NCBI GenBank assembly: GCA_963721805.1
Contig: CAVRJY010000001.1
Location: forward strand, 1,280,001-1,344,000
DNA: 64,000 bases
DNA from: Nitrospirota bacterium
GTDB lineage: Bacteria; Nitrospirota; Thermodesulfovibrionia; Thermodesulfovibrionales; JdFR-86
Direction: 5' to 3'
A program made the translations under genes and the position numbers. Position 1 is the stretch's first letter; each line of letters opens with the position of its first letter. Of this stretch, positions 12,128 through 58,731 are shown one piece after another. The notes beneath the pieces were generated by a model. The model searched no databases. It was not told the DNA's origin and saw only the letters and a list, made by a program, of their open reading frames with translations.

Positions 12128-12191
12128 TGCGATCAGGCCATACAGGGTGGCGAACGGGTTTCAGGCGTCTGCACAATAATAAGGAGGATTT

Positions 12192-12350
12192 ATGAAAAGG
12201 CTGGCAGGTCTCTTTATCATCATTATTCTGATGTCGGTGTGTAGCGGGTGCTGGTGGGGCTGGGGCCCCGATCGCGGAGGCCGTGAAGGCGGCGGCTATG
12301 ATCGCGGCGGAAGCCATGAAGGCGGCGGAAGTCACGAAGAGCGTCGTTAA
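12192..12350 (+). CDS. Small Gly-rich putative lipoprotein, 52 aa, paralog of upstream gene (absent from ORF track)
   Basis: MKRLAGLFIIIILMSVCSGCWWGWGPDRGGREGGGYDRGGSHEGGGSHEERR; RBS AAGGAGG. Confidence 0.75.
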   Translation: MKRLAGLFIIIILMSVCSGCWWGWGPDRGGREGGGYDRGGSHEGGGSHEERR

Positions 12351-12531
12351 GACGAGGTACGAACGGCAAAGCGATCTTTTTTGGCAACCGCAGGCCGTCG
12401 GGATCGAAATGGTAAGAACATGCGATGTCGGATTTCAGATATGCACATGATGACTATATCAACGGGGGTCTCATGATGCAAACGATAACGATGACGCAGA
12501 CGTTCATACATATAGCAGAACAGGAGGGTTG

Positions 12532-14241: not shown

Positions 14242-14398
14242 GGCGTGAGATCGTGAAAGCGTGCGATTGGAGAGACAGGCCGATATTCATGCTTTGGCCT
14301 GTCTCTCCCCCTCCTCGCTTTAGCGGCTGGTTTTGATATCATGCGCGGCTTTTTGGACATGCTGCTGCAAAGAGCAGCAATATAAAGGAGGACATGAG

Positions 14399-33663: not shown

Positions 33664-33899
33664 ACTTCTTGGTTTATCATCGCGCATGAGTAATAGCAAT
33701 ATGACACATATCATGTTAGGATTTGGCGAAAAGGGACACAATGAAGGTGAGCGCAGAACGAGGAAGGGAAGGGCGATGAAAGGAACCATGACAGAGGGGC
33801 GGGGCTACAGGCACACAATGGCTTGCGGAACTGCCTTTGGCCGCCCGGCTCCGGCATCCGAACAAAACCCCGAAAAACCGGCCAAAACATCCGAACATC

Positions 33900-34217
33900 C
33901 GAACAGGGGGCGCGGAAAGAAATGAGTATTGTCGCAGGGTTAGCCCCGGTTTTGACCCAAACATCCGAACGGAAAATGCAAAAACGCGCGCACACGCGCG
34001 CGAAATGCGTATATATGCCTATGACTGGCCCTCAAATCATGTCGTTGACCTTGGGGGCGCGGGGGTCCAGCGGCTGGGCCGCATCTAACCCCCGAAAGCG
34101 CGAGAAATCGTGTCAGACTAGGAACGGCGAGCAGACCGCCCGGAGGTGTACTGTGATGTACATTGAGGACGAGGCTTCGAGCCGTGACAACGTATCACGC
34201 GAGTTTCGCGCGCTTTC
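33900..34217 (+). repeat. Unclassified structured non-coding element, copy 1 (hairpin core 34094-34217)
   Basis: Colinear similarity to the reverse complement of ~42973-43290; core bounded by GAAAGCGCG/CGCGCTTTC with central TGTAC-N6-GTACA. Confidence 0.85.
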
Positions 34218-34225
34218 ATTTCCAC

Positions 34226-34262
34226 TTGACAAAAGGGTCGACCTAAGTTATAATTATTACAA
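34226..34262 (+). promoter_or_regulatory. Consensus sigma70 promoter overlapped by a Per-box-like operator
   Basis: TTGACA(34226)-17 nt-TATAAT(34249); TTATAATTATTACAA (34248-34262) is one mismatch from TTATAATNATTATAA. Confidence 0.8.
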
Positions 34263-34263
34263 G

Positions 34264-34692
34264 ATGAGAGAGCTTCTAAACAAGACCGGGATGAAGAAAA
34301 CTCCGCAAAGACTTGCGATTCTGGAGTTCCTGAAGGGTAATACCAGCCACCCTTCGGCCGAGGACATCTATGCGGCCGTGGTGGTAAAGTACCCGTCGAT
34401 GTCATTCGCGACGGTCTACAACACGCTCAACAAGCTCCGCGAGCACAGAAGCCTGCTGGAGCTGACGATAGAGCCGGGCCGCAAGCGGTTCGACCCGAAC
34501 CCGGCCCCGCACAACCACATGATCTGTACTAAATGCGGCAGGATCGAGGACATACACGAAAGCTTCTCGCTCGAGCTGCCGCGCGACGCGATGCTGGGAT
34601 TCAGGCTCACGGGGACGCACGTGGATTTCTACGGCGTATGCCCCTCATGCGACGAAAACGATACCACCAAGGGAGGCCCGATATGTGCGTAG
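34264..34692 (+). CDS. perR: Fur-family regulator, PerR-like
   Basis: TPQRLAIL, HPSAE, ATVYNTL, HNHMICTKC, CPSC; upstream of rubrerythrin. Confidence 0.8.
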   Translation: MRELLNKTGMKKTPQRLAILEFLKGNTSHPSAEDIYAAVVVKYPSMSFATVYNTLNKLREHRSLLELTIEPGRKRFDPNPAPHNHMICTKCGRIEDIHESFSLELPRDAMLGFRLTGTHVDFYGVCPSCDENDTTKGGPICA

Positions 34693-35117
34693 ACCATCGA
34701 GTGATCTGCAAGTGCGCGACGAATTCCGTGAGCTTCAACTTCCGCGACAACGTGATGCCGGAAAACGTGATCAGGGCTCTGTACTGCCCGCGCTGCTCGT
34801 CTGACCTCGCGTTTGACCCCGAGAGCATGGTGCGCGACAACACCTGGGTGATCGACTACGACATGGAGGTCGCTGAGTTCATGAAGCCCAAACTCCCGGC
34901 CGCCCGGATCACGCCGGAGTTCATATTCGACAAAGGCTATGCCACCTGGCGCGGCGTGTATCCGGGCGACGAGGTCGACTCGGCGCGCGAGCGCGAGGAG
35001 ATAGTGAAGCTCGCCAAAACCGATCCGAAGCGGTACTTCACGGAGTTTAAGACGTGGGCGGTAACCCGTATGGAACGCCTCAAGAGCGAAGGATGGAGGA
35101 AGGCGAATGAAGCTTGA
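34683..35117 (+). CDS. Conserved-looking hypothetical protein with CxC and CxxC motifs
   Basis: MCVDHRVICKC...LYCPRC; RBS GGAGG; overlaps perR end. Confidence 0.7.
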   Translation: MCVDHRVICKCATNSVSFNFRDNVMPENVIRALYCPRCSSDLAFDPESMVRDNTWVIDYDMEVAEFMKPKLPAARITPEFIFDKGYATWRGVYPGDEVDSAREREEIVKLAKTDPKRYFTEFKTWAVTRMERLKSEGWRKANEA

Positions 35118-35271
35118 AACCTTCGGTGAGACAGAGTTTCTCGTGCTGGTAGGCGTGGTCACGTGCCCCCGCTGCGGCGAGGACGTCGAGATCTGGAACG
35201 AGGGCTACGCGGAGGCGGTCTGCGATTATTGCGATTACAGGGTGTTCAGGAAAGAGCGCATCGTCCACTAG
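35107..35271 (+). CDS. 54-aa zinc-ribbon/rubredoxin-like protein (absent from ORF track)
   Basis: MKLETFGETEFLVLVGVVTCPRCGEDVEIWNEGYAEAVCDYCDYRVFRKERIVH; RBS GGAGGAAGG; overlaps upstream stop. Confidence 0.7.
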   Translation: MKLETFGETEFLVLVGVVTCPRCGEDVEIWNEGYAEAVCDYCDYRVFRKERIVH

Positions 35272-35314
35272 GCGCGCGCCTGAGAGCTAATAAATACAAG
35301 GAGGAAGCAATCAT

Positions 35315-35809
35315 ATGTCGAATTCCGAAGACGGGTTGAAGGCGGCGTTCGCCGGAGAGTCTCAGGCCAACAGGAAGTACCTCGCGTTCGCAAAACAGGC
35401 GGACAAGGAAGGCCTCAAGCAGGTCGCGAAGCTGTTCAGGGCCGCCGCGGAGGCCGAGACCGTGCACGCGAACAACCACCTCAAGGAACTCAAGGGCGTG
35501 AAGTTTACGCGCGAGAACCTCGAGGCCGCGATAGCGGGCGAGACATACGAGTTCGAGAAGATGTACCCTGCCTTCATCGAGGCCGCGCGCGCAGAGGCGA
35601 ACGAGGGCGCGCTGAGGAGCTTTAACTTCGCAAACGAGGTCGAGAAGATACATGCCGCGCTCTATAAAAAGGCGCTGGCGGAGATTGGCAAGAACGCAGA
35701 GACCGATTACTACGTCTGCCAGGTCTGCGGCAACACGGTAGAGGGCGAGGCCCCGGACGTGTGCCCCATATGCGGCGCGAAGAAACAGGCTTTTAAAAAG
35801 ATGGATTAA
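35315..35809 (+). CDS. rbr: Rubrerythrin
   Basis: AFAGESQANRKY, EAETVHA, GETYE, EKIHA, C-terminal CQVCG...CPICG. Confidence 0.95.
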   Translation: MSNSEDGLKAAFAGESQANRKYLAFAKQADKEGLKQVAKLFRAAAEAETVHANNHLKELKGVKFTRENLEAAIAGETYEFEKMYPAFIEAARAEANEGALRSFNFANEVEKIHAALYKKALAEIGKNAETDYYVCQVCGNTVEGEAPDVCPICGAKKQAFKKMD

Positions 35810-35859
35810 GCGGCATGGGGGCGACTCCCCTCGTTCCCGGCCGTTAATCATTTCTCTAC

Positions 35860-35900
35860 ACGGGGGGAGCCTTCCCCCATCCCCAAATGGCTCCCCCCGT
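35860..35900. terminator. GC-rich hairpin between convergent genes
   Basis: ACGGGGGGAGCC...GGCTCCCCCCGT 12-bp stem; no clear U-tract. Confidence 0.4.
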
Positions 35901-35920
35901 CCCTCCCCCCTTAGGGGGCG

Positions 35921-36460
35921 CTATCTGCCTCGATAGGAGTCTGAGTGATCCCGGTGTTTGGTCCAGTTGTCGGCGTAGAGCCGCGCGAGCCCGGCGTTTT
36001 TGATCATCAGCAGGTTCTCTGCGTTGTTCGTCTCGGCCGCGAAGGTGAAGTTGAAGCTCCCGGTTATGACCGTCAGCCGGTCGATGACCATGACCTTGTT
36101 GTGCGCGATCTCGTGGGCGTCGTCGATATACGTCCTGATCCCGGCATGGGCGAGGAAGTCCAGCGACGAGTAGCGCTCGGTCCGGTTGCTCCTGTCGAGG
36201 ATCACCTCGACACGGAGCCCTCTCTTGCGGGCGTCGGCGAGTGCCTTCGCGATCTCGCGGCTGGTGAACGAGAAGGCCTGTACCAGGACCTCCGTGCGCG
36301 CGGCCTCGATCTCATGGACGATGTATCGCGTGCACCCGCCGCCGGGGCTGAAGCACACGCGCGCAGGGGTGTTGTTGAGCGTGAGGTCAGCGGGATAGGC
36401 CGCCGGAGGAAGACAGAGAAGCAGCGACAGCAGGGCGCATGCGGATATACGGTTCAGCAC
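35921..36460 (-). CDS. Exported phospholipase D-family (Nuc-like) nuclease
   Basis: Signal peptide, FSPGGGC, single HNKVMVID...GSFN...NAEN motif. Confidence 0.88.
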   Translation of the reverse strand: MLNRISACALLSLLLCLPPAAYPADLTLNNTPARVCFSPGGGCTRYIVHEIEAARTEVLVQAFSFTSREIAKALADARKRGLRVEVILDRSNRTERYSSLDFLAHAGIRTYIDDAHEIAHNKVMVIDRLTVITGSFNFTFAAETNNAENLLMIKNAGLARLYADNWTKHRDHSDSYRGR

Positions 36461-36466
36461 GGGCGC

Positions 36467-36814
36467 TTATTTCTCATCGAGGTGGAACCTGTGCAGGAAG
36501 CGGTGATATACGGGGGCGAACAGTACGCCGACGAATGTCAGGAACGCGACCCCGCTGAAGAGTGCATAGAAGGCAGCGAAGAGCTTTCCGCCCTCTGATT
36601 CCAGATGGTCCACCGGGCCCATGCCGGTCAGGATCATCGAGGCGTTCAGGAACGAGTCGGTCCAGCCGAGGCCGCCCCAGACATGATACCCGAACATCCC
36701 GAGACCGAGCGAGAACCCCAGGATGAGGCACGAGAATCCCGCGTATCTCAATTGGCGGGCGGCGAAATCCCTCTTGCTCCGAAGCGGCTGGCTATGGTGT
36801 TCGAACATGTCCAC
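36467..36814 (-). CDS. Small two-TM membrane protein with channel-pore-like loop
   Basis: TM-WTDSFLNASMILTGMGP-TM. Confidence 0.7.
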   Translation of the reverse strand: MDMFEHHSQPLRSKRDFAARQLRYAGFSCLILGFSLGLGMFGYHVWGGLGWTDSFLNASMILTGMGPVDHLESEGGKLFAAFYALFSGVAFLTFVGVLFAPVYHRFLHRFHLDEK

Positions 36815-36883
36815 CTCCGCGGCAATTGTAACACGCCTGAGACCGCGAGACGCAGACTGGGAAGGGCAGGATGCGGCCGGGCG

Positions 36884-37306
36884 CTATCTGGCGTTTGCCT
36901 TGAGCGCGGCGTCGAAGGTTGTGAGCTTTCCCTTGTGGAGCTTTATGAACTCAAGCGCGCCGGAGCGGCTCGCGAACGCGACCGTGCTGATGCTGCTCAT
37001 CACGGGAGGGGCGTCGCTGCCGATGACATAGTAAGCTGTCTTTGCGTCAGTGAGATCTGCCGAGAGGTAATCGGCCACCTTGATGTCCACGGCGCCGGAG
37101 GCGTGCTCGCTAACATATTTGGAGACGCAGGCGAAGCTGCAGAATTTAAGGGTCGAGTGGTCACTGGTCTCGATCACGAGACGGGTGTGCATGTTCTGGT
37201 CTATCCACATCCCGCATACCGCGCAGTCTTCGCGCCCGGGCCCCTCGGCGGCGAGGGACCCGGCCATGAGCATTATCGTTAGCAGCGTTATGGCAATCAC
37301 GCGCAT
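36884..37306 (-). CDS. NosL-family metal-binding protein
   Basis: Signal peptide, CAVCGM, FCSFAC, AYYVIGSD, VAFAS. Confidence 0.8.
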   Translation of the reverse strand: MRVIAITLLTIMLMAGSLAAEGPGREDCAVCGMWIDQNMHTRLVIETSDHSTLKFCSFACVSKYVSEHASGAVDIKVADYLSADLTDAKTAYYVIGSDAPPVMSSISTVAFASRSGALEFIKLHKGKLTTFDAALKANAR

Positions 37307-37337
37307 CGGGCATTGTCCTGTCAGCGGGCGGGGAGTG

Positions 37338-37793
37338 TTATTTCCCCATTTTCATGCTCTCGGGTTCTTTGGCCCTGCGCTTGAGAGCATCCTTGAAGTC
37401 GAGGACCTTGCCGCCGAAGCCCTTTACGAACTTATGCGCCTCGTCCTTTTTCGCGAATGCTATCCAGCTCGGGGCGCACGCCGGCGTGGCCGAGCTGCCC
37501 ACGACGTAGTACATCTTGGCCGGGTCCGTCCACTCGCCGCTTATGAAGTCGCGAGCGCGTGCGGATTTAATCTTGTCCTTCTGCCCGGCCTGCACCCAGA
37601 GTCCGCAGTGCGGGCAGCAGTACATCGAGACCTTGCCGTCGGTGAAGGTGATCTCATATGCGGTGTTTTGGTTCTCGTCCATGTTCATCCCGCACTGGGC
37701 GCACTTGCCCATGTCCCCGGCGGCGAAGGCCGCGGTTGCGACGAACATCAGCGACACGGCGATCAGAAATGCTACGGCTAACTTCTTTCCCAT
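37338..37793 (-). CDS. NosL-family metal-binding protein
   Basis: Signal peptide, CAQCGM, YCCPHC, YYVVGS, IAFAKKDEA...FGGKV. Confidence 0.8.
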   Translation of the reverse strand: MGKKLAVAFLIAVSLMFVATAAFAAGDMGKCAQCGMNMDENQNTAYEITFTDGKVSMYCCPHCGLWVQAGQKDKIKSARARDFISGEWTDPAKMYYVVGSSATPACAPSWIAFAKKDEAHKFVKGFGGKVLDFKDALKRRAKEPESMKMGK

Positions 37794-37838
37794 ATGCCCT
37801 CCTTAAAGTTCTGGTTATAAGACTTCACCCGATGGCTC

Positions 37839-37867
37839 ATTATAGGGGAGGTTGCATGGGCTTGCAA
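37839..37867 (-). promoter_or_regulatory. Sigma70 promoter for the nosL-like genes
   Basis: TTGCAA-17 nt-TATAAT. Confidence 0.65.
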
Positions 37868-37980
37868 TAAGAATTTTAGAGATGGCATTGGCGGGGTTGG
37901 CCTGTCATGCGTTGAAGGTGCATGCCAGAGGCTGTTGCCTCTTGATAGCGCCGCGCATTTGGAAGTATCATGAAGTTATT

Positions 37981-38595
37981 ATGAGTGACCGCTTGAAATC
38001 CGGCCCCGATGGATTCCGGGCTATCCACGATGAATTCCGCGGGCGTATCCATCGGTATCTGTGCCGGATGGTCGGCGAGGCCGAGGCGGAAGACCTTACA
38101 CAGGAAGTGTTCATCAAGGTCGACAAGGCATTGCCCGCATTCCGGGACGAGTCTTCGGTCTCCACGTGGCTTTACAGGATCGCGACGAATGCAGCGCACG
38201 ATCACATGCGAAGCGCCTCCAGCCGGCACGAGTCGCTGCATGCTGAGTTGTCCGATATGGACGACGCCATGGCGAGCGAAGGATATGGCGGTGGCGCGCT
38301 CCACCTGGACGCAGCGTTGATTCGCAAGGACATGAATGACTGCATACGCGGCATCGTCGACAGCCTGCCGGAACCGTACAGGACGTCGCTCGTTCTGTGC
38401 GACATCGAGGGGCTGACGAACGCCGAGGTCGCCGAGGTTACGGGCATCTCCCTGGATTCCGTCAAGATAAGGCTCCATCGGGCTCGGACAAAGCTCCGAA
38501 TAGAAATGGAAAAGAAGTGTGTCTTCTACCGCGATTCTCGAAATGAACTGGCCTGCGACCGAAAACCTGTCAAGCTGAACCTCTCAGTAAAATAA
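37981..38595 (+). CDS. ECF sigma factor with short Cys-containing C-terminal extension
   Basis: AEDLTQEVF, TWLYRIATN, VKIRLHRAR, tail CVFYRDSRNELACDRK. Confidence 0.9.
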   Translation: MSDRLKSGPDGFRAIHDEFRGRIHRYLCRMVGEAEAEDLTQEVFIKVDKALPAFRDESSVSTWLYRIATNAAHDHMRSASSRHESLHAELSDMDDAMASEGYGGGALHLDAALIRKDMNDCIRGIVDSLPEPYRTSLVLCDIEGLTNAEVAEVTGISLDSVKIRLHRARTKLRIEMEKKCVFYRDSRNELACDRKPVKLNLSVK

Positions 38596-38844
38596 TTGTA
38601 TCTTTTCCCTCCCGGCTGCGTTTGCAGTGTGTCACCATTATCGCTAGGCAAGGAATTCCACGCCAGGTAGATACCAAAGACGAGCAGGCCATTCGGCACA
38701 GGGCCTGGCATCCGTAAGGGTGGACACATGGTCCGGTTTGCCGGGCTTCCATGGCATTAAACATCGTAGATAAGTCCGGACGGATTCTTTCTGTTGCTTT
38801 TATACTATATATACTCTAAAATTATTCGTTTATGAGGAAACAGT

Positions 38845-40041
38845 TTGAAATATAAATTATTCGCGGCGGTCCGTTCCCTACGCACTGTGTCCATCGCAGC
38901 CATGATCGTAATTTGCTCTCTTATTGCCGTCTCGGCCTCGGCTGCGCAGAAGAGGCCCGCTGGCACCAAAGCCCCGGCACTCCCGGCCGGGAAGGGTGAG
39001 GTCTGGACATTCGGCGTAAACGATTCGGGTCAGTACGGCGATGGCTCGACGTTGAAAAAGGACAGGTTCGTCAAGGCGCTTGGCCTCGACGGCGTGGTCG
39101 ACCTCGCTGCAGGACAGAAACATGTCCTAGCACTGAAATCCGACGGGACCGTCTGGGCATGGGGATGGAACTTCAAGGGCCAGGTCGGCGACAACTTCAA
39201 CCCTAACGCTACCGAGCCTGTGGAGGTCACGGGGCTGAAGGACGTCGTCGCGGTTACCGCCGGGATGTATCATTCCGCAGCTCTCAAAAAAGACGGCACC
39301 GTATGGTGCTGGGGCAGAAACTACTACGGACAGCTCGGCAACCGCCAGGGCGGCAGCAGCAGGATGGACGACAGCGCGCTGCCCGTACAGGTCACCGGGC
39401 TGGGCGGCGTCGTGCAGATCGCGGCAGGATGGTATCACACCCTTGCGCTGACGAGGGATGGCAAGGTCTGGGCATGGGGCTGGAACTCCAAGGGACAGAT
39501 AGGCGTGACCAACTTGTACAAGGCGTCCCAGCCTGTCGAGGTTGCCGGCCTGAGTGATGTGACAAAGGTCGCGGCCGGGATGTACCATTCGCTCGCTATC
39601 ACGAAGGGCGGACAGGTGGTCGCCTGGGGCGCCAACGACCACGGCCAGCTGGGCGACGGGACGGACATCGACAGCAGCGTACCGGTCGAGGTGGCGGGGC
39701 TGACGGACGCGGTGGACATAGCCGGGGGCGTCCACCACAGTATCGCGCTTAAGCGGGACGGTTCGGTCTGGGGCTGGGGCGGCAACGACTACGGGCAGCT
39801 CGGTCCCGGATCGCTGAACGTCGCGGACGCGCCGGTCCGAATAACGACCCTGCCGTCGGGGATAATCGCGCTTACGGCCGGTGCGCATGACTCCTCGGCG
39901 CTCACGCGCGACGGCTCGCTCTGGATGTGGGGGTTGATCAACAACGGCACTCTCAGCATATCCGCGCCCAGGCGCATCAACGCGCCAGAGGGCATAACAA
40001 AGATATCCTCGGGATTGAATTTCATAACCGTGATCAGATGA
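38845..40041 (+). CDS. Exported RCC1-repeat beta-propeller protein
   Basis: Signal peptide; about seven AGxxHxxALxxDGxVWxWGxNxxGQLG repeats. Confidence 0.9.
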   Translation: MKYKLFAAVRSLRTVSIAAMIVICSLIAVSASAAQKRPAGTKAPALPAGKGEVWTFGVNDSGQYGDGSTLKKDRFVKALGLDGVVDLAAGQKHVLALKSDGTVWAWGWNFKGQVGDNFNPNATEPVEVTGLKDVVAVTAGMYHSAALKKDGTVWCWGRNYYGQLGNRQGGSSRMDDSALPVQVTGLGGVVQIAAGWYHTLALTRDGKVWAWGWNSKGQIGVTNLYKASQPVEVAGLSDVTKVAAGMYHSLAITKGGQVVAWGANDHGQLGDGTDIDSSVPVEVAGLTDAVDIAGGVHHSIALKRDGSVWGWGGNDYGQLGPGSLNVADAPVRITTLPSGIIALTAGAHDSSALTRDGSLWMWGLINNGTLSISAPRRINAPEGITKISSGLNFITVIR

Positions 40042-40062
40042 TCGGAGGTTGCGCGGGCTGAG

Positions 40063-40314
40063 TCAGTGCGCTGTGGCGAGTGTCCCGGCGCCGTATGCGT
40101 GCAGCTCAGAGAACATGCGGCTCAGGCATGCGGGGCATATGCCGTGGGTCACCGCCCCGCGGGCATCGGCCGGGCCGAATCCCCAGCTTCCGTCATCGCC
40201 CCTGGTCCGCCTGCACCACGCGCATGCGGTGATGAACTCCTCCTGCCTGTCGATGAACCCTGCTGAAGCGTTCGCTCCGGCTGCCGGTGCACCTATGTTC
40301 CCTGTCTCGATCAC
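40063..40314 (-). CDS. Small putative zinc-binding protein
   Basis: CAWC...THGICPAC motif. Confidence 0.6.
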   Translation of the reverse strand: MIETGNIGAPAAGANASAGFIDRQEEFITACAWCRRTRGDDGSWGFGPADARGAVTHGICPACLSRMFSELHAYGAGTLATAH

Positions 40315-40396
40315 GCCTATCTAATCGGCCAGGCGTGGGGGAAACTTTAATCCGAAGCGGCCTCAGGCGGCCATTATGCGCCTGCCTCGGGCCGCT

Positions 40397-41182
40397 CTAC
40401 TTTCCGAGCACGTCGCTCAGGAACTCGCTTGCCATCTTCCACGACCTCTTGTCCGCCAGGGCGTTGTATGCGGCTCCCTTGGAGTTGTCGGTCCCGGCGC
40501 TCTCGTCAGTGAACGAATGCACCGCGCCTCCGAAGTAAACCATCTGCCAGTCGACGTGCGCGGCCCTGAGCTCGTCCTGAAACGCGGCTATGTCCTTGGG
40601 GGAATTAAACGGGTCGTCGGCCCCGTGCAGGATAAGGATTTTGGCCTTGATGTTCTTGCCGTCTTGCGGGGTGGGGCTGTCAAGCACGCCATGGAAGGTC
40701 ACGACCGCCTTCAGGTCCGCCCCGGAGCGCGTGAGTTCGAGCGCGGTCAGGCCGCCGAAGCAAAACCCGATGGCACCGATCCTTGACTTGTCCACCCCCT
40801 TGAGCGCCCCGATCACGTCGAAGGCCGCCTTCGCATGCCTTCTAAGCAGGGTGCGGTCGGCCTTGAATTTGCCCGAGATCGCCGCGGCCTCGGTGGCGTC
40901 TTTTGGCCTTATCCCATTGCCGTATATGTCAGCTACGAAAACGATGTAGCCCATCTCCGCCAATAGCTTGGCGTGTTTCATCTCGTTGTCCCCCGGGCCC
41001 ATCCATGCATGGAACACGAGCACGGCGGGCCTGCTGCCCTCAAACTTGTCGTCCTTGACGACCTTACCCTCGAACTTCTCGCCGTGGTTCAGGTACTTCA
41101 GCGGCTTTACTATAATCTCGGCAGACGCCGGGACGGCCATGGCCGCTATCAACACAAAAGCTAAGAGTATCCGCATCGTCAT
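40397..41182 (-). CDS. Dienelactone hydrolase family protein, exported
   Basis: GFCFGG nucleophile, HGADDP, HSFT. Confidence 0.9.
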   Translation of the reverse strand: MTMRILLAFVLIAAMAVPASAEIIVKPLKYLNHGEKFEGKVVKDDKFEGSRPAVLVFHAWMGPGDNEMKHAKLLAEMGYIVFVADIYGNGIRPKDATEAAAISGKFKADRTLLRRHAKAAFDVIGALKGVDKSRIGAIGFCFGGLTALELTRSGADLKAVVTFHGVLDSPTPQDGKNIKAKILILHGADDPFNSPKDIAAFQDELRAAHVDWQMVYFGGAVHSFTDESAGTDNSKGAAYNALADKRSWKMASEFLSDVLGK

Positions 41183-41239
41183 TTATGCCTCCTTTATTTT
41201 TAGAAGATAGCGCGGCTGCGCTGAATTGTCAATGCGCAA

Positions 41240-42925
41240 TCACGGCATGCCGGCCCACCTTGCGGCCTCGCGGTTGTGCGGGTCCATCGAGAGGGCCCTG
41301 GCGAAGGCCGCGCGGGCCATGCTCCTGAGCCCGCGCTCGTAGTAGATCTGACCGAGAGAGACGTAGTTGTCCGCGTTTTTCGGGTGCAGCTCGATACTGC
41401 GCGTGACGAGCGATTGCAGCAGTTCCCATATCGAGCTTTTCTCTATCGTCCGCCCGGCCAGGGGCGTGCGCACGAACGCGACGCTGCCGAGGTCCCAATA
41501 GACCGGGCTCCACCCGTCGTCCTTCAGCAGCGCGAGCACGATCGGCGAGACGTTGCCCTTAAACGGTAACAGGGGCCAGAAGACAACGGTGTTGACCTTG
41601 TATTTATCCAGTACGGCCTGCCAGCCGGGCGCGGCGTCGGCCACCGTGTCGTAGTCGTCAAAGGAGTTTCTGCTGTCGATGAACGCGCGGTAATGCGGGT
41701 AAAGGGCCCAGATCATGTAACCGCCCCATTCGTATGGGTGGAAGATGTTTGCGGGGGGCCTGTCCGCCAGGATGAACTCCGCGGTCTTCGAAGGGATCAG
41801 GGTCTCGGGCAGCACTGGCTGCCTGACGATGCTCCGCGGGACCAGCCACAGCGCGATCAGCGCAACGAGCCCGGCGGCGAGCGGGATATGAAGGAGCCTT
41901 GCGCGGACGCGGCCATCCCCCGGCGCGAGGTTCCCGGCAATTATGGCGGTCCCGAACAGCGACAGGAACAGGCCGGCCCTGAACGTGGTCAGGGAGGCGT
42001 ACGCCAGCCCAGCGAAGGCCACCGCATATAGCCAGTCGATGCGCCGTTTTCTTAGCGCCGCCCATACGAACGAGGCCGCGCCGAGGGCAATGAACGCGAG
42101 CATCTCGAAATAGAGGTAGTGCTGCCCGGTGAACTCCGTGAATTCTTTAAGCGGCAGTATCTCGTGGATCGTCGCATGGCCCGTGGCCGCGGTATGGAAT
42201 ATCCCGGCGGCCGTCATATAGGCGGCCGGGCCGTTGGGGTTTAGCGCCGAGCATGCGAGCGCGCCAAGCGCGGCCAGGATGAAAAACCGCTTCTCCCCGC
42301 GCGGGTGGCCGCTGAGGAAAAGCTCCCACGCGGCATAGAGGCATATGATCCCCCCTCCGCTTACGTAGCCCGGATGCATGTTCGACCAGATGAGCATCAT
42401 CGGCAGCAGCCAGAGTATCGGCCTGTACCGCCGCCCGGCGCCCGCCTCGAGCCTCCAGCTTTCGAGCAGGTACAGAGTGGCCGCGAAAAACGCGATAGAG
42501 ACCGTCTGGGGCCTGATCTCGTCAAACTCGGTGCAGATGGCGATCATCGGCAGCATCAGCAGGTAGCTCAGCGGCGGCCTCAGGCCGTGCCTGCCAATGA
42601 GGTGGTGGATGAAACAGAAGGCAGTTACGAAGATCGAGGACTTCAGCGCGATCAGGCCGTAGAAACCGAGGTAATGCTGGACCAGATAGAAGATCACCTG
42701 CGCAAGCCAGAAGGCGCGCAGGACGAATGGCGTGGGGGCGTAAAACGCTATCGAGAAATCGTCCGTCTGGGGGATCGCCATACGCTGCCAGATGAGCTCG
42801 CCGGTCTTGAGGTGCCACCAGACGTCGCCGAGTTCCATCTGGGTCAGGAACGCCAGAGATGCCGCGCTCCAGAAGATGACCGCAGAAAGGCGGGAGACAT
42901 ATGTCCAATTACGCTCGCTAATCAT
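41240..42925 (-). CDS. Polytopic membrane protein with C-terminal TPR (possible GT-C glycosyltransferase)
   Basis: DVWWHLKTG after TM1, IRPQ, WSNMH, LNPNG, WGGYMIW, FIDSR; TPR-like tail. Confidence 0.7.
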   Translation of the reverse strand: MISERNWTYVSRLSAVIFWSAASLAFLTQMELGDVWWHLKTGELIWQRMAIPQTDDFSIAFYAPTPFVLRAFWLAQVIFYLVQHYLGFYGLIALKSSIFVTAFCFIHHLIGRHGLRPPLSYLLMLPMIAICTEFDEIRPQTVSIAFFAATLYLLESWRLEAGAGRRYRPILWLLPMMLIWSNMHPGYVSGGGIICLYAAWELFLSGHPRGEKRFFILAALGALACSALNPNGPAAYMTAAGIFHTAATGHATIHEILPLKEFTEFTGQHYLYFEMLAFIALGAASFVWAALRKRRIDWLYAVAFAGLAYASLTTFRAGLFLSLFGTAIIAGNLAPGDGRVRARLLHIPLAAGLVALIALWLVPRSIVRQPVLPETLIPSKTAEFILADRPPANIFHPYEWGGYMIWALYPHYRAFIDSRNSFDDYDTVADAAPGWQAVLDKYKVNTVVFWPLLPFKGNVSPIVLALLKDDGWSPVYWDLGSVAFVRTPLAGRTIEKSSIWELLQSLVTRSIELHPKNADNYVSLGQIYYERGLRSMARAAFARALSMDPHNREAARWAGMP

Positions 42926-42972
42926 CACCGCAAATTATACCAATTCATACGCATTAATCTGCTCACTTTCAT

Positions 42973-43290
42973 GAAAGCGCTCCAAATCGCTTGATACGTC
43001 GTTGGGCATCGAAGACTCGCCCTCTATGTACGTCACAGTACACCATCGGGCGGTCTTCTTGCCCTGCCTTGTCTGAAGCCGATTTGGGCGCGCTTTCGGG
43101 GGGCACGAAAAAAGGTCGCCCCCCGCGCCCCACAAGGTCAACGGCATGATTAGAGGCTTAGCTATATACATAACTTACCGCGCATGCGCGCGCGTATTTT
43201 TTTAGAGAGTTCAAATGAACAAACAAAACATGTCTTAACCCTGCGGATTTCATCGCTTTTTTGGCCGCCCCAGTGTTCATGCGTTCAGAA
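42973..43290 (-). repeat. Unclassified structured non-coding element, copy 2 (hairpin core 42973-43097)
   Basis: Inverted, diverged copy of 33900-34217; outer boundary approximate. Confidence 0.85.
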
Positions 43291-43404
43291 ACGCTTTTGA
43301 CCGCTCCATCGGCCTGCTGGCTAGCCTTCCGCGCCCTCAAAAATACCCATCCGAGCATCATGCCGTATTGAAGCACAACGATATATGAAAAAGCGATAAA
43401 CTAT

Positions 43405-43420
43405 GGTTTATATATAAACC
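43405..43420. repeat. Perfect 16-bp palindrome
   Basis: GGTTTATATATAAACC. Confidence 0.7.
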
Positions 43421-43490
43421 GAAGGCTATAGGAAAAATTCATATCCGTGCGTTTTCTACTAACTTTCGACTAACTGAAGTTAATGAACGG

Positions 43491-44417
43491 TCAGAGCCGC
43501 TTCGCATTTTTCCAGAGCATTTGCAGGTGTTTTGGAAGGGTGACGTCGTAGGTCTCATAGCTGCACTTGTAGTCCTTGCATGTGAAGGCCCACCATTTCT
43601 TGGCGCCTCCCTGCTTGTCGAAAAGCTGCAACAGGTGCGGCCCGTTCTTCGATGGCGGGAGCAGCCGGGTCTCGACCTTTGTGTTTTCGGTCAGCCCCTC
43701 GTTCGGAAACGAATATTGGATGAACGTATCGAAATCATCCGGTTTCCCGGAGTAATTGAATTCATATACGTGCTCGCCTCCGGAGAACTCTATGGGAGTC
43801 AGAAATATGTTTGGATCGCACTCGATGCAGCTTGAGTGCCTGACGAAAACGGCCTTCTTTCCCCTGTCCTCGCCGAAATCCGTGATCGCATGGACCGTGC
43901 CGTCGAGGTACGATCCCGCGTACGTGGCCTTATACCTGCCCCCGGCATATTTGAGCTCCCAGAGGCTCAGGTACGGGTATTCGTAGGTCTTGCTTATCTC
44001 GGCATACCCGACCACCAAATCCGGCACGCCGTCTCCGTCGAGGTCCGAGACGTAGAAGGCGAGGTTGTCCTGCTTGAGCGTCGGCGCAAGCCCGGCAATT
44101 GCCTGCCTCAGTTCGCCTATGGCCCTCTTGTTGCATACGTTGGAGTAGAGGTTGAACCTCCAGTCGCTCGTAGGCTTAAACGTAGGGCGGGCCTTCCATA
44201 CGAGGACCGAGCCGATGACGCACTGTTTGACCGAGGCCGTCCTCATCGCCGAGGCTGCGATGTTTCGCAGCCTCGCGTGCACAGAGGGGTCCTGGACCGT
44301 GAAGGGCGAGTTTTCCCTGTAGTTCGGCGCATCGGATAAGAGCTTCCCGATCTGCAGCGCGCCCGCGTTAGCCGGGATCAGCAGGCTGACAAGGACTATA
44401 ACCATAAAATACCGCAT
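43491..44417 (-). CDS. Exported hypothetical protein
   Basis: RBS AGGAGG, signal peptide, DLDGDGVPDL Ca-binding-like loop, several Cys. Confidence 0.75.
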   Translation of the reverse strand: MRYFMVIVLVSLLIPANAGALQIGKLLSDAPNYRENSPFTVQDPSVHARLRNIAASAMRTASVKQCVIGSVLVWKARPTFKPTSDWRFNLYSNVCNKRAIGELRQAIAGLAPTLKQDNLAFYVSDLDGDGVPDLVVGYAEISKTYEYPYLSLWELKYAGGRYKATYAGSYLDGTVHAITDFGEDRGKKAVFVRHSSCIECDPNIFLTPIEFSGGEHVYEFNYSGKPDDFDTFIQYSFPNEGLTENTKVETRLLPPSKNGPHLLQLFDKQGGAKKWWAFTCKDYKCSYETYDVTLPKHLQMLWKNAKRL

Positions 44418-45409: not shown

Positions 45410-47194
45410 GGCGCGACATGGGATGCGGCGATGTGCGTGAGACCGCGATAGGCAGGGAGCTTGCGGTCTCGGGCTGGGTGTTTCGGAGGCGCGACCACGG
45501 CGGACTGATATTCGTTGACCTCCGCGACCGGAGCGGGCTTCTGCAGGTCGTCTTCAGCCCCGATGTCTCGGCCGAGGCGCACGCGCTCGCGCATGACCTT
45601 AGATCCGAGTTCGTGATAAGCGTCATCGGCGAAGTCCGCCACCGCCCCGAGGGCACGGTGAACGCCGAGCTCCCGACCGGCGCGGTCGAACTCTACGCCA
45701 GCCAGCTAGTAGTGCTCAACCGCTCGGCCGCGCTCCCGTTCATGGTCGAGGACGCCGGGGATACCTCCGAGGCGCTTCGGCTCAAGCACCGCTACCTCGA
45801 CCTCCGCCGCCCCGAGATGCAGCACAACCTGATACTCCGCCACCGCAGCGTCAAGGCGATGCGCGACTACCTCGACGAGCGCGGGTTCATCGAGATCGAG
45901 ACCCCGATGCTCACAAAGAGCACCCCGGAGGGCGCGCGCGACTATCTCGTACCGAGCCGGCTGAACCCCGGACTGTTTTATGCGCTGCCGCAGTCCCCGC
46001 AGCTTTTCAAGCAAATTCTCATGGCCTCCGGGATCGAGAAATACGTACAGGTCGTCAAGTGCTTCCGCGACGAGGACCTCCGCGCCGACCGCCAGCCCGA
46101 GTTCACGCAGGTCGACCTCGAGATGTCGTTTATAGACCGCGAGGACATCATCACCCTGATCGAGGGGATGATGAAGGAGCTGTTCAAGCGCGTGCTCGAC
46201 GTCGATGTCGCAGACGCCGTTTCTGCGTCTTTCGCACAAAGACGCGATGGAGCGCTTTGGCTCTGACAAGCCTGACATGCGCTTCGGCATCGAGCTTTGC
46301 GAGATGGCCGATCTCGCGGCTCAGGGCACGTTCAAGGTATTCCTCGACGCTATAAACTCCGGCGGCCGCGTTAAGGCGATACTCGGAAAGGGCATGGCCG
46401 GGATGTCGCGCAAAGAGGTCGACCTGCTCACGCAGGAGGCCCAGGGCTTCGGGGCCAAGGGCCTGGCCTGGATAAAGGTCAAAGACGGCGGTTTCGACTC
46501 GCCGATAGCGAAGTTCTTCCCCCCCGAGACGCTCGGCGCGATGGCCGCGAGGCTCGACGCTAAGGACGGGGATATCATGCTCTATATAGCGGACCGCGAG
46601 GCGGTCGTGCTCGACGTCCTCGGCCGCATGAGGCTCGAGCTCGCGAAGCGCCTCAATATGGTTAGCGAGGGTTTTAATTTCCTCTGGGTCGTTGACTTCC
46701 CGCTTCTCGAGTGGGACGATGAGGAGGGCCGGTTTAACGCGATGCACCACCCCTTCACCTCCCCGCGCGACGAGGATGTGGCGGCAATGATGGCAGGTAG
46801 CGTTACCGATAAATCGGCGCTTGGCGCCCTTCAGGCCAAGGCCTATGACATCGTGCTTAACGGCTTCGAGATCGGCGGCGGGAGCATCCGCATACACCGC
46901 CCCGAGGTGCAGGAGAAGATGTTCGAGCTTCTGGGGATCGGCGAGGAGGACGCGCGCGTGAAGTTCGGGTTCCTCCTGGACGCGCTTCAGTACGGCGCTC
47001 CGCCGCACGGGGGCCTCGCGCTCGGGCTCGACAGGCTTATGATGCTCATGGTCGGGGCGCAGTCGATCCGCGACGTGATCGCGTTTCCCAAGACGCAGAA
47101 GGCCGCGTGCATGATGAGCGGCGCGCCTTCCAACGTATCCGAAAAGCAGCTGCGCGAGCTCCACATAAAGCTCGACGTGGTCACGGAGGAATAA
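45406..47194 (+). CDS. aspS: Aspartate--tRNA(Asp/Asn) ligase, frameshift near 46205
   Basis: RRDHGG (His suggests non-discriminating type), [35 protein letters not shown]; split across ORFs 45406 and 46205. Confidence 0.95.
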
Positions 47195-49072: not shown

Positions 49073-49730
49073 GGCCATCCGCGCGGCGGCGGTCGCACTC
49101 TGCATCGCCGTGGCGGCGGGCTGCGCCGGCCGCCAGCGCTACGACGACTCGTGGACTAGCGGCTATATGGTCGCCTCGTGGTACGGCCCTGACTTCCACG
49201 GCAAGCTCACAGCATCGGGCGAGCGGTATGACATGGACGGCCTGACCTGCGCGCACAAGAGCTTTCCGTTCGGCACGCGGCTTAAGGTGACGAACGTCTC
49301 GACCGGGCAGTCGGCCGAGGTGATCGTGAACGACCGTGGGCCATTCGTCGGAGGCCGCGACCTGGACCTCTCGCGCGGAGCGGCCAAGGCGGTCGGGCTC
49401 TACGGGCCGGGCACCGGAAAGGTCAGCGTAGTGAGGCTCGGGCGCGACGAGCGCTACAGGAAATACCTGTCCGAGCCCGCGGGCAGGCTGGCCGGGCCGT
49501 ATACCGTGCAGGTCGGGGCGTTTGCTGATAGCGATAACGCGGTTCATTTCAGGATGAGCCTCGAACTCACGCACCAGGACGTGCATATGACAGAGAAATG
49601 GATAGGCGGAAAGAAGCTCTACAGGGTGCGAGTCGGCAGGTTCCAGAGCGAGGCCGGGGCCCGCACGCTTGCACGCTCGCTCGCTGACGAAGGCTATAAT
49701 GTAATGCTTGCTACGTATGACCCAGCTTGA
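49044..49730 (+). CDS. rlpA: RlpA-family lytic transglycosylase lipoprotein with SPOR domain
   Basis: Lipobox AAGC, ASWYG, NDRGPF, DLS, VQVGAF. Confidence 0.92.
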
Positions 49731-50786
49731 CCGCATAAGGAAGAAGATCGCCGCGGGCCGCAGGCTCGACGGGCAGGATGCGCTCGAGCTCTTCTCGACC
49801 GCCGACATCCATTCGCTCGGCGAGCTCGCGTCCGAGGCCGCCCGCCGCATAAACGGCAACCGCGCGTACTACGTCCGCAACCTCCACGTAAACCCCTCAA
49901 ACCTCTGCGTCAACAGGTGCAGGTTCTGCGCCTTCAGCCGCTCCGAGGGCGAGGAGGGCGCATACGAATTCGATAACAACGAAATCATAAAACGCATACG
50001 CAAGGCAGGGCCGATCTCTGAGGTCCATATCGTAGGCGGCCTGCACCCGAGCTGGCCCTTCGAGCATTATGACGAAGCTCCTAAGCCGTATCACGCAAGG
50101 CCTTCCCGGCCCTGCACATAAAGGCATTCACCGCGACAGAGATCGACTACTTCAGCCGCATAAGCGGCCTCTCGATAGAGGACGTGCTGCTGAGGCTCAA
50201 GGCCTGCGGGGCTCGATTCGATGCCCGGCGGCGGGGCCGAGATATTCTCTTTGGACGTGCGTAACGCGCTCTGTCCCGAGAAGCTCTCAAGCGAGGGCTG
50301 GCTCGCTGTGATGCGCACCGCGCACGGTCTGGGTATCAAGAGCAACGCGACGATGCTCTACGGCCATACCGAGAGCCCCAGCCACCGCGTTGAACATCTC
50401 ATGCGGCTGCGCAGCCTTGCAGGACGAGACCGGAGGGTTTCAGGCCTTCATCCCGCTTGCCTACCACCCGCATAACACCGAATTAGGAGGCTCGGTCGGC
50501 TCGCGGACTCGATGACCTGCGCACTACCGCTGTCAGCCGCCTCGTGCTGGATAATTTCAGGCACATCAAGGCCTACTGGGTGATGCTCGGCCCTAAGCTC
50601 TCTCAACTGGCTTTATTGTTCGGAGCGGACGACCTCGACGGCACGGTCATAGACGAGCGCATCACGCTCGCGGCCGGGGGCAAGAGCGGGCAGGGCATCA
50701 CGGCCGATACGCTCGTGAACCTGATCAAGCGCGCCGGGCGCAGGCCGGTCGAGCGGGACTCCTACTATAAGGCGGTGAAGCGCTGA
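49717..50786 (+). CDS. mqnE: Aminofutalosine synthase (radical SAM), several frameshifts
   Basis: CVNRCRFC, EVHIVGGLHP, MPGGGAEI, NATMLYGH, HIKAYW, GADDLDGT spread over frames. Confidence 0.85.
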
Positions 50787-51875
50787 TGGCATTCGGCCGC
50801 ATCGACAGGGACGACGCGCTGGAGCTGCTGAAGTACGGCGAGCTCCTGAACCTCGGCCGGGGGGCTGACCTGATGCGCCGCGCCCTGCACCCCGAGGGGA
50901 TCGTGACGTTCGTGATCGACCGCAACATCAACTATACGAACGTCTGCATCAACAAGTGCAAGTTCTGCGCGTTCTGGCGCGAGGAGGCGCAAGAGGGCGG
51001 CTACGTCCTCGGGCGCGACGAGCTGTTTAAAAAGATAGAGGAGACGATCGCGCTCGGCGGCACCCAGATACTGATGCAGGGCGGGATCAACCCCTGCGCT
51101 CGGTATCGATTATTACATCGACCTCCTGCGCTCGATCAAGGGCCGCTTCAAGATAAACATACACGGGTTCTCCCCGCCCGAGGTCGTCCATATCGCCTCA
51201 CAGCTGCCGGTCTGAGCGTGCGCGATACGATCATAGCTGAACTCAGGCGCGCCGGGCTCGACTCGATCCCCGGCGGCGGGGCCGAGCTGCTAAGCGACCG
51301 CGTGCGCAAGCGCATCAGCCCGAACAAGATACGCACCGACGAGTGGCTGGTGTCATGCGCGAGGCCCATCGTTCGGTATGCGCACGACAGCTACGATGAT
51401 GTTCGGCATAGGCGAGAAGCCCGCTGATATCATCGAGCACCTCGACCGCATACGCACGCTTCAGGACGAGACCGGCGGGTTTACGGCCTTCATCCCGTGG
51501 CCCTTCCAGCCCGGCAATACCGCATACGAGGGCAAGATCGAGACCGCGACCGCGGCCGAATACCTGCGCGTGCTCGCGGTATCGAGGCTGTATCTGGACA
51601 ACGTCCATAACGTGCAGGCCTCGTGGGTGACGCAGGGGCTGAAGGTCGCGGAGGTCGCGCTCCGCTTCGGCGCGAACGATCTGGGCTCGACTATGATAGA
51701 GGAAAACGTAGTGGCCTCCACCGGCGTCAGCAACAGCGTCACGATGGACGAGATGGTCGCCGCGATTCACGCCGCCGGCTTCCGCGCGGCCCAGCGCGAT
51801 ACGCTCTACAATCTGCTTAGGGAGTTCCTCGCAAGGAGGATGGATAGATGCCCGATACGCTTTATGACGTGGTGA
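50786..51875 (+). CDS. mqnC: Cyclic dehypoxanthine futalosine synthase (radical SAM), frameshifted
   Basis: DRNINYTNVCINKCKFC, ILMQGG, TATMMFG, QASWVTQG, STMIEENVV; end approximate. Confidence 0.88.
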
Positions 51876-52809
51876 TAATCGGCGGCGGCCCGGCCGGGCT
51901 CGCGGCCGCGCAGTATGCGGCTCGCGCGAGGATGAAGACGGTCGTGCTCGACAAATCCAAAACCGCCGGGGCGCTCGCGTTCGCCGGGGAAGATCGAGAA
52001 CTACCCCGGTCTCGTCCCGCCGCTTCCGGGCAAGGAGCTGCTCGACGTGTTCCGCAGCTCAGGCCATCGAGTTCGGGGCCGAGTATGTGGACGACGCGCA
52101 GGTCGTGGGCGTGAGCGTCGAGGGCGAGGCCAAAGAGGTCTTCACGATGGCGGACTCCTATAAGGGCAAGACCCTGATTATCGCGACCGGCTCGATGGGC
52201 CGGAAGGCCACGATCAAGGGCGAGGCCGAGCTGCTTGGGCAAGGGCGTGAGCTACTGCGCGATATGCGACGCGGCGTTCTTTAGGGGCAAGACCGTATGC
52301 GTGCTCGGCGACTCGGAAGAGGCGGTCAAGGAGGCCGGGCTGCTCACGCGGTTCGCGCCTACGGTGTATCTGATTGCTCCTTCGCAGAAATTGAAAGCCC
52401 CGGAGGACCACCCCGCGCTCGAGGCCGAGAACCTCACCGTACTCTTGGGCCGCACAGTGACGCGACATCAGCGGGTGCGGACTCGGTGGAGTCGGTGCTC
52501 ACCGTGGATAAGGACGGCAACGAGGAATGCATCGAGCTCGACGGCGTGTTCGTATACATACAGGGCTCGAAGCCGATAGTGGACTATCTGGGCGAGACCG
52601 TCAAGCTCGGCGAGAGCGGCTGCATCGAGACCGACCGGTACATGGCGACCAGCGTGCCGGGCGTGTACGCGGCCGGCGACGTGACGTGCACCGAGGTCCG
52701 GCAGGTCGTGATCGCGGCGGCCGACGGTGCGATGGCCGCGCTCTCGGCCGAGAAGTTCGTCCACGGCAAGAAGCGCCTGAAGGCCGACTGGTCAAAGTCA
52801 GGCGAGTAG
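51848..52809 (+). CDS. trxB: Thioredoxin reductase-like FAD/NAD(P) oxidoreductase, frameshifted
   Basis: GGGPAG, IIATG, GVSYCAICD, GVYAAGD over four ORF fragments. Confidence 0.8.
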
Positions 52810-57652: not shown

Positions 57653-57694
57653 ATCTGGCTTGGCCGTATGGGCCCGGGATATATGGAGGCTGAT

Positions 57695-58731
57695 ATGAAA
57701 CGGAAATCGCTGTTACGTGTTTTTGATAATGCTGCTTGGAATCATGGCCCTGCCGCTGGCCGTCTATGCGGAGAACCCGGACTGCAAAATGTGCCACCCG
57801 GAGAAGGCCGAGGGCAAGTCCGTCCATCCGGCGGTCATGATGGGCTGCGAGTCCTGCCATACCGGCGTGGACGCCAACAACATACCGCACAAGTTCACGG
57901 GCAAAAAGGGACTGTCAGCCCAGCCTCCGGAGCTTTGCTTCAACTGCCACGACAAGGGGATGCTGCTCGGGAAGAAGTTCAAGCACTCCCCGGCTGCATC
58001 CGGGATGTGCACCACCTGCCACGACCCGCATACCAGCCCCAACGAGCACCTGCTCACTCAGCCGAACATATGCGCCATGTGCCATGAGGTGGACAAGATA
58101 AAGGGCGTCACGGGGTAACGGCAAACACGCCCGTCACACCGTGCATCCCCCGGTGGCCGCCGACATGTGCCCGTCGTGCCACAAGCCGCACAGCTCCGAC
58201 AACGACAAAATAATAGCCAAGCCTGCGCCCGATCTCTGCTTCGACTGCCATGACAAGACCAAGTTCATCGGTGCTGTCGTGCACGCCCCGGTCGGCATCG
58301 GTCTCTGCCTTTCGTGCCACAAGCCCCACAGCTCGCCCAACAAGGCAATGCTCGTGGCCCCCGGAAGCGATCTGTGCTTCGGCTGCCACGACAAGGCGGA
58401 GTTTACGAAGAAGGTAGTCCACAAGCCCGTGGCCGAGGGCAGATGCACCGCCTGCCACCTCCCGCATGCCGGTCAGAACGAGGCTATGCTCGAACGCAAG
58501 GGCAATCTGCTGTGCCGCAAGTGCCACCCCGACATCGAGCGCAAGGGCCATGCGGTCGTGGGCTTCGAATCAGCCGGACATCCGGTGCGCGGACGTGTGG
58601 ATCCCCTGAGGCCCGGGAAGGTCTTCGGATGCCTGAGCTGCCATCTGCCACATTCGTCCGACTCGATAAAGCTGTTCCGCTATCAGGCCGACAGCATGTA
58701 CGACCTCTGCCTTTATTGCCACAAGATGTAG
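57695..58731 (+). CDS. Paralogous multiheme c-type cytochrome, 13 CxxCH, frameshifted
   Basis: RBS GGAGG, signal peptide, 5 motifs in ORF 57717 plus 8 in ORF 58141. Confidence 0.9.

Follow-up and report, generated by a model that had tools for sequence, protein, structure and literature searches.

Two stretches of a 64,000-nt window from a Nitrospirota bacterium (GenBank assembly GCA_963721805.1, contig CAVRJY010000001.1, positions 1,280,001 to 1,344,000, forward strand) are probably long-form members of a dispersed, non-coding, non-autonomous family of structured repeats. [quoted passage not shown] By an extended nhmmer model, copy 1 occupies 33870-34224 (+) and copy 2 43555-42943 (-) of the window, i.e. 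of the whole stretch of DNA that was analysed. Members share an imperfect hairpin of ~137 nt, whose fold is under selection, for pairing of RNA or single-stranded DNA (ssDNA). This fold is more deeply conserved than the ends of the element, which is the feature out of the ordinary.

The host genome (G000; 2.78 Mb in 9 contigs, ~60% G+C, 94% complete) holds the family at 210 merged blastn places and, after one iteration, 251 nhmmer matches, where the original prediction, made from the letters of the window, had counted two copies. The search for copies beyond these two thus came out in favour of the element, and a one-off decayed duplication, or a chance likeness of two intergenic regions, is refuted by the genome matches together with those in 60 other genomes. 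The copies fall into nested size classes of ~125, ~180, ~330 and ~560-610 bp, with the hairpin as their common end. Our own cut-off rule assigns 121 copies to a medium class (~175-190 bp) and 46 to a full class (~330 bp); 20 are short, with the hairpin alone (~125 bp), 21 are cut short on the 3' side and 43 are of other kinds; an upstream extension of ~225 bp in 35-40 of the 46 full copies brings these to ~560-610 bp. Starts of copies cluster at preferred points, while the 3' end (GCGCTTTC plus ~5 nt) is common, and conservation across the family stops there. The 5' side of the main host form holds a G5...C5 hairpin and a box, GCCGTTGACC, that is strongly conserved, and an A-run with a GC palindrome is conserved in the consensus of the long form. 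All 194 complete cores are distinct, with a mean pairwise identity of 0.69 and nearest-neighbour identities mostly of 0.85-0.98. R1, a covariance model of the core with 137 positions, matches all 150 candidates scored in the host genome (the best 150 of ~1130). Copies lie on all large contigs and equally on both strands, and copy strand has no relation to GC skew in this genome. Two candidate features were rejected: a small open reading frame (ORF) in the long form is not kept in the consensus, and a Shine-Dalgarno-like GGAGG in the apex is followed by no conserved start codon.

Both window copies show what had been predicted of them: the colinear blocks, a long hairpin with GAAAGCGC/GCGCTTTC as its closing stem and TGTAC-N6-GTACA at its apex, and both stems with compensated changes were all found in place. 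The structured core, put at 124, measures ~137 nt, and copy 2, present where expected, is longer than had been thought, reaching the limits given above; it is the longest form of the family (extended nhmmer model positions 6-615, E 9e-191), and its first ~60 nt are shared with the 3' end of an ORF at 43491-44417 (-). Copy 1 lacks the ~225-bp 5' extension. These are the only full copies in the window; their alignment has 406 columns with a mean column identity of 80%, and we infer that they are separate insertions and no functional pair.

Gene positions, counted on our own crude gene calls, differ by class. The ~180-bp form lies directly after stop codons: the hairpin end of medium copies adjoins the stop codon of a convergent gene in 77 of 98 anchored cases (50 of the 77 within 0-24 nt), and the 350 bp on the far side are mostly unique sequence. 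Long forms, both window copies among them, come directly before the next gene's -35 box, and 29 of 42 full copies aim at the start of that gene, typically from ~50 nt off, which is the length taken up by a -35/-10 promoter and a very short leader, an arrangement seen at both window copies. The antisense orientation recurs in 22 of 34 loci in other genomes (crude ORF calls again). As a separate observation, in about 25 of the 121 medium copies a second module (CTCTCACTATTCGCGG-GC hairpin-CTCTCACTATTCGCGC; e.g. G000 C1:339142-339191 and C1:815201-815250) adjoins the 5' end, a mosaic like that of bacterial interspersed mosaic elements (BIMEs).

Folded as RNA, the core of copy 1 (34087-34224, +) reaches -52.3 kcal/mol (z -3.5) and that of copy 2 (42966-43104, -) -64.8 kcal/mol (z -7.2); the opposite strands fold too (z -1.8 and -6.9, respectively), so folding energy picks no strand. 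Possible resemblances of the hairpin to loop E, to a k-turn, to the signal recognition particle RNA and to the hairpin ribozyme were considered and dropped. Covariation within the genome was measured on 41 diverse copies (alignment A2) with a 47-pair structure written by hand: 83.4% of cells are paired versus 27-47% with the 3' partners slid, a comparison biased in favour of the structure because it was derived from the same 41 sequences. Both sides have changed in 32 of the 47 pairs, and none of 500 shuffles attains any of five measures. Free of that bias is a test on 68 independent nearest-neighbour pairs of 88-98% identity (own script, MAFFT alignment), in which pair-keeping double changes number 13 versus 1.4 expected, pair-breaking single changes 77 versus 118 expected, and 3.4% of sites differ in stems versus 9.0% in unpaired columns. 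Across lineages (39 of 44 alignment rows kept, after removal of four on the reverse strand and one duplicate), 39 of the 47 pairs occur as two or more Watson-Crick types. Stems are rewritten from GC-rich to AT-rich around asymmetric loops and a tandem G.A/G.U motif that do not change. Three parts are fixed: the apex base GAGG-stem-UUGAGG, the loop CA-GAC-AAGG and, as the partner of that loop, GA(A)C-N3-GUA. Selection on structure, as had been proposed from two copies, is thus borne out within the genome, between close copy pairs and across lineages.

The wobble pairs tell the strands apart. On the written strand G.T exceeds A.C by 415 to 169 in the host genome and by 142 to 56 across lineages, and two adjacent G.U pairs, kept in 31 and 35 of the 39 lineage rows, exist on that strand only. 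The G.T/A.C ratio is above 1 in every context (1.88 for stop-adjacent and 1.37 for start-adjacent copies), and since this holds whatever the host context, we read the selection as tied to the element's own strand and not to host transcription. The conserved wobble pairs favour the written strand, and the fold would be read as a single strand of it, most likely RNA, possibly DNA.

Sequence search was too insensitive for following the family further: blastn against 40 relatives, with the ~190-bp form as query, gave no matches, and it was the covariance model that detected the family. In the same order, 22 of 150 other genomes have full-length R1 matches (3/10 in the host's own family; 7/15, 4/15, 7/12 and 1/15 in others; none in eight more); in a sample taken across the phylum, 38 of 150 other genomes have matches, 11/11 in one family and 12/18 in another. 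Copy numbers from R1 in other genomes, taken from the best 21 candidates per genome, are lower bounds. The species genome collection, scanned for an exact pattern, gave two loci, both in contigs of Paceibacteria metagenome-assembled genomes (MAGs), where ~4 were expected by chance (own arithmetic, 19 fixed bases). This gained meaning only through R1, which has at least 19 full-length matches in one of these MAGs and at least two in the other at E<=1, and 14 of these matches have E values under 1e-9. Among 150 other Patescibacteria R1 has no match. No match was found in the plasmid collection searched with two family members, and no viral contig carries the apex pattern. Of sequencing runs, only four holders are listed, all of DNA and with small shares, and none of RNA. 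As the original prediction had it, no Rfam family matches: Rfam 15 has nothing at the element, either in a gathering scan of the window or in permissive scans of both copies, and nothing in nine loci (eight from other genomes and one from the host); the best nearby chance match scores 17 bits against a threshold of 75. The family is large, old, widely distributed and patchily present. Short stand-alone hairpins bearing the apex motif only (GAGGTGTAC-N6-GTACA-N2-GA), between A-rich and T-rich arms, were also observed at L073 (G041, Paceibacteria; ~40-90 nt downstream of an element), L030 and L031; they are terminator-like, as though the apex were a module of its own.

Signs of mobility come from the relatives. 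In 11 of them the hairpin lies between terminal inverted repeats of ~20 bp, (TA)GAACCTRTCTCAAAATTG and its complement, in a unit of ~180 bp. Matches to the inverted repeats (<=2 mismatches, forward + reverse) number 68+67, 48+39, 24+23 and 9+9 in four relatives and 5+7 (~5 copies) in the host genome, versus 0-1 for a reversed-pattern control; G003 has variant inverted repeats, and none were seen in the phylum-level loci. Presence varies within a genus: in G088, a congener of G069, neither R1 nor blastn detects the element, and at an orthologous site there it is missing along with a second, unrelated repeat. In this comparison of filled and empty sites, the right junction fits a TA or CTAG target. 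The second repeat (L083:1256-1412 in G069; ~150 bp) is itself multi-copy in G069, G088 and G115, all of one genus. The elements are small (125-610 bp), non-coding, multi-copy and polymorphic in insertion, as MITEs are.

We therefore favour, of the three candidates put forward originally, the non-autonomous mobile element, which fits best with the inverted repeats in relatives and the absence from a congeneric genome. The element would spread, or would once have spread, by transposition in trans through an enzyme encoded elsewhere. The form expanded in the host genome may have lost its inverted repeats and gained the 5' module (box GCCGTTGACC and G5/C5 hairpin), and copies may persist where they are least harmful or somewhat useful; they could serve as 3'-end stem-loops or as read-through barriers.

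Several observations weigh against this explanation. The main host form, both window copies included, is without inverted repeats and has no conserved flanking motif, and its direct repeats of >=5 bp are not above a shuffled control (80 copies). As regards target duplication in relatives, only 3 of 10 intact copies have TA at both flanks, and the filled/empty comparison is a single informative site, clean at the right junction only. No autonomous partner with the same ends was found: the host genome has no such long element, and one 1.7-kb inverted-repeat pair in G069 encloses a membrane-protein-like ORF and no transposase. Neither of two enzyme families follows the element. Y1_Tnp has no match in the element-rich G002, G003 and G006; 33 of 150 relatives have IS630-type DDE_3, the sole DDE family tested, but G000, G002, G003, G006 and G013 lack it, and it is not reported for G069. 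The relatives are mostly draft MAGs, which makes the absence of an enzyme weak evidence. As to the strand, the evidence conflicts with the wobble pairs: in most cases a copy runs antisense to its preceding gene, and any read-through transcript would then be of the opposite strand for most copies, and the GC palindrome of the long form, with the T-run after it, scores as an intrinsic terminator on that opposite strand. Finally, asymmetric loops kept across phyla exceed the needs of a plain DDE-type MITE, which points to a function of the fold.

An alternative, which we hold to be unlikely, is a functional structured RNA family, cis-acting in mRNAs or trans-acting, which would bind a conserved protein via the tandem G.A/G.U motif and the asymmetric loops, and would have spread because the RNA is useful or because it takes part in its own copying. 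The three fixed loop elements are kept though every stem is rewritten, even in the AT-rich Paceibacteria; conserved G.U pairs are confined to one strand, compensatory changes are in excess between close copies, and the 5'-nested size classes have one common 3' end. The core also stays while the termini vary by lineage, from the variant repeats of G003 to the absence of any in the host main form and in the phylum-level loci seen. Against an RNA family, however, the ~180-bp form is without an internal promoter (its TTGAC box is followed by a GC hairpin and no -10), copies lie mostly antisense to the neighbouring gene, 250 all-different copies would be unusual for an RNA gene, and no protein partner was identified.

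A folded ssDNA substrate of an HUH/Y1 enzyme (IS200/IS605 TnpA or RAYT), like a REPIN or PATE, is very improbable. The host genome does have six identical IS200-like tnpA copies, in a 602-bp insertion sequence (IS), and several of these lie 0.3-2.4 kb from family members; the main form lacks inverted repeats and detectable target duplication, as Y1 transposition predicts, and folded DNA also tolerates G.T pairs. However, the 602-bp IS has its own end hairpins, CCCCGTGGCTTGCCACGGGG, unrelated to the family, and its nearness is explained by insertion: the IS200-like element (3 cases) and an IS481-like element (~1.2-1.3 kb, 344-aa DDE protein; 8 cases) are inserted within the 5' extension of long copies. 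Nor does a conserved tetra- or pentanucleotide stand beside either end, or a strand bias appear along the replicon. The co-occurrence with HUH/Y1 enzymes that was suggested as a check was not seen in relatives: Y1_Tnp is found in 102 of 150 irrespective of the element, and the three element-rich genomes named above have no match. It was further observed that both IS types enter the same ~200-bp stretch near the palindrome GGTTTATATATAAACC, which looks like an insertion hot spot (G000 C1:42301-42660, C4:146508-146867 and C1:1252034-1252393; for the IS481-like element, e.g. the C2:287817 region); the intact counterpart in the window is 43380-43480.

The sharp conserved 3' end, followed by unrelated sequence, and the multi-copy, structured scaffold would also suit a relic, or a trans-supplied, guide-RNA scaffold of a TnpB/IscB-type nuclease, with the flanking DNA as guide. 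This is close to refuted: the Cas12f1-like/TnpB zinc ribbon PF07282 is found in 0 of 11 candidates in the host genome (IscB-specific families lying outside the search), there is no Rfam match to HEARO or another omega-RNA, and the inverted repeats of relatives lie beyond the hairpin on both sides.

Among described repeats, the closest likeness of the favoured mobile element is to bacterial MITEs (Correia, ERIC, Nezha, Chunjie and Coxiella QMITE2). Shared are the short length (~180 bp), the non-coding, intergenic nature and tens to hundreds of copies, the terminal inverted repeats of ~20 bp (in the relatives' copies) and a stable hairpin of the whole element, as well as size variants, truncated REP-like forms and a presence that varies between close genomes. 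The difference is that here the fold, not the termini, is conserved across families, the phylum and Paceibacteria, with rewritten stems, and that the main host form is without inverted repeats or detectable duplication. REP sequences, BIMEs and REPINs with RAYT likewise form hundreds of extragenic palindromes, many just past stop codons and in mosaics with other modules; the hairpin here is, however, 137 nt long versus 20-40 nt, its internal loops are asymmetric and conserved, and it has no RAYT/Y1 association. Integron attC sites are imperfect hairpins of like length after ORFs, with structure kept above sequence, and carry R-box ends (GTTRRRY). The family consensus has no GTTRRRY R-box, and copies are dispersed over all contigs and not in cassette arrays, which leaves the attC-like reading, another of the original candidates, unsupported.

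Chunjie of Geobacter uraniireducens is described in reviews as an A+T-rich MITE of 178-235 bp with 21-bp inverted and 9-bp direct repeats (PMC3184786, PMC10969869); compared with those descriptions, the family copies read have no 9-bp direct repeats. A 2009 Geobacter genome paper lists a multi-copy intergenic family with a central palindrome, GRCGTAGCGCTGCTACGCC, also present in three other genomes (PMC2700814); its entry for this repeat gives a four-genome distribution and no known function, structure model or inverted repeats (PMC2700814). The apex of some relatives, GGCGTAGC-N3/4-GCTACG(T/C) (rows L086, L088 and L117), closely resembles that palindrome, and the window encodes Geobacter-type decaheme cytochromes. 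Judged by a 19-nt motif only, the Geobacter repeat is probably the same family. The original view of the element as undescribed would then hold for its function and structure, neither of which that paper gives, and probably not for the family, which it appears to list. A literature search with the motif strings returned only unrelated papers.

Table 1. Features of the two repeat copies and their surroundings in the window (positions in the 64,000-nt window)
Feature	Position	Strand	Details
Copy 1 core hairpin, ~137 nt	34087-34224	+	R1 136.8 bits, E 2.5e-36, model positions 1-137
Copy 1 closing stem, GAAAGCGCG paired with CGCGCTTTC	34094-34102 with 34209-34217	+	
Copy 1 conserved loops, CAGAC-AGG, GGAGGTGTAC-N6-GTACATTGAGG and GAC-N3-GTATCA	within 34087-34224	+	
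Copy 1 5' modules	33870-34086	+	nhmmer alignment to family models, family consensus
Copy 1 5' module, three CATCCGAAC repeats	within 33870-34086	+	
Copy 1 A-run and GC palindrome CGCGCGCACACGCGCGCG	33985-34002	+	
Copy 1 box GTCGTTGACC	34041-34050	+	
Copy 1 G5...C5 hairpin	~34054-34093	+	
Copy 2 core hairpin	42966-43104	-	R1 127.5 bits, E 1.2e-33
Copy 2 5' modules, longest form	43105-43555	-	extended nhmmer model
Copy 2 box GCCGTTGACC	43145-43136	-	
Copy 2 GC palindrome	43179-43194	-	
Copy 2 5' part, GAAC repeats and ~225-bp extension with palindrome GGTTTATATATAAACC	43420-43405 (palindrome)	-	
Terminator-like GC palindrome and T-run, copy 1	33985-34002	-	opposite to written strand
Terminator-like GC palindrome and T-run, copy 2	43179-43194	+	opposite to written strand
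Weak partial match to hairpin 3' arm	5911-5994	-	nhmmer E 7e-4, model positions 280-346
Promoter-like TTGACA-17-TATAAT of Fur-family gene	34226-34254	+	12/12 consensus positions
Gene downstream of copy 2	41240-42928	-	562-aa protein, weak TPR matches; context, outside repeat

The features of the window copies are given in Table 1. Downstream of copy 1 is a Fur-family gene at 34264-34692 (+; Fur Pfam match E 2.3e-28), whose promoter-like site begins 9 nt past the copy, outside the repeat. Ahead of the gene downstream of copy 2, a TATAAT at 42941-42936 lies 5-8 nt from the start. Both downstream genes (34226-34266; 42925-42941) have a TATAAT 5-10 nt before the start codon, without a Shine-Dalgarno sequence, so that their mRNAs look leaderless.

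The scans agree with the original statement that no transposase or integrase lies in the window: none of these families was found among the 71 ORFs screened against NCBIfam or Pfam, drawn from 64 ORFs of a crude caller plus extras, with 11.7-14.3 kb outside the scan. The only mobile-element-like hint among these ORFs is an AAA_22 ATPase fragment at the window edge (63155-63616), of a kind that commonly accompanies transposition helper proteins. The 2.6 kb at 11700-14300 have no called ORF, with 31 stops in the frame tried, and no Rfam family at gathering threshold. The gene content of the window, with GSU2203-type decaheme cytochromes, rubrerythrin, hybrid-cluster protein and a futalosine-pathway enzyme, suggests a Geobacter-like anaerobe; searches with DnaX in the protein atlas and with S19/L22 in PDB indicated no clear phylum. 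Many window genes are fragmented or fused (46205-47191, 49708-51872, 52297-52806 and 55767-58728): AspS is present as its C-terminal half only, MqnC runs over four ORFs, there is a thioredoxin-reductase piece, and decaheme cytochromes are split. Elsewhere in the genome, at L102 (G000 C1:274996-278226), the L2 frame has only 108 aa, and S19 and L22 form one 202-aa ORF. The fragmented genes are either assembly indel errors or widespread pseudogenes.

With some 250 copies of 125-610 bp, the family takes up a measurable part of this genome's intergenic sequence, beside the promoters and stops of ordinary genes (here a Fur-family regulator), where such repeats can mislead annotation, cause breaks in assemblies and possibly change expression. 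Conservation of the fold goes far beyond the needs of a transposase-binding end. A bolder claim, which we hold only tentatively and think doubtful, would make the 137-nt rod a class of functional structured RNA or folded ssDNA, so far uncatalogued, in at least two bacterial phyla; its fixed asymmetric loops and tandem G.A/G.U motif would dock a conserved protein, and it would multiply through its fold, by RNA- or ssDNA-mediated copying, and not via its variable termini. If this is true, the rod's mode of mobility or of host control would fall outside the present categories of MITE, REP and guide RNA. The new covariance model detects the hairpin in distant genomes, and with the conserved fold it makes the acting strand, and the linked protein or copying mechanism, testable questions. 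If the family is just a selfish MITE, it still provides a useful family definition for the phylum.

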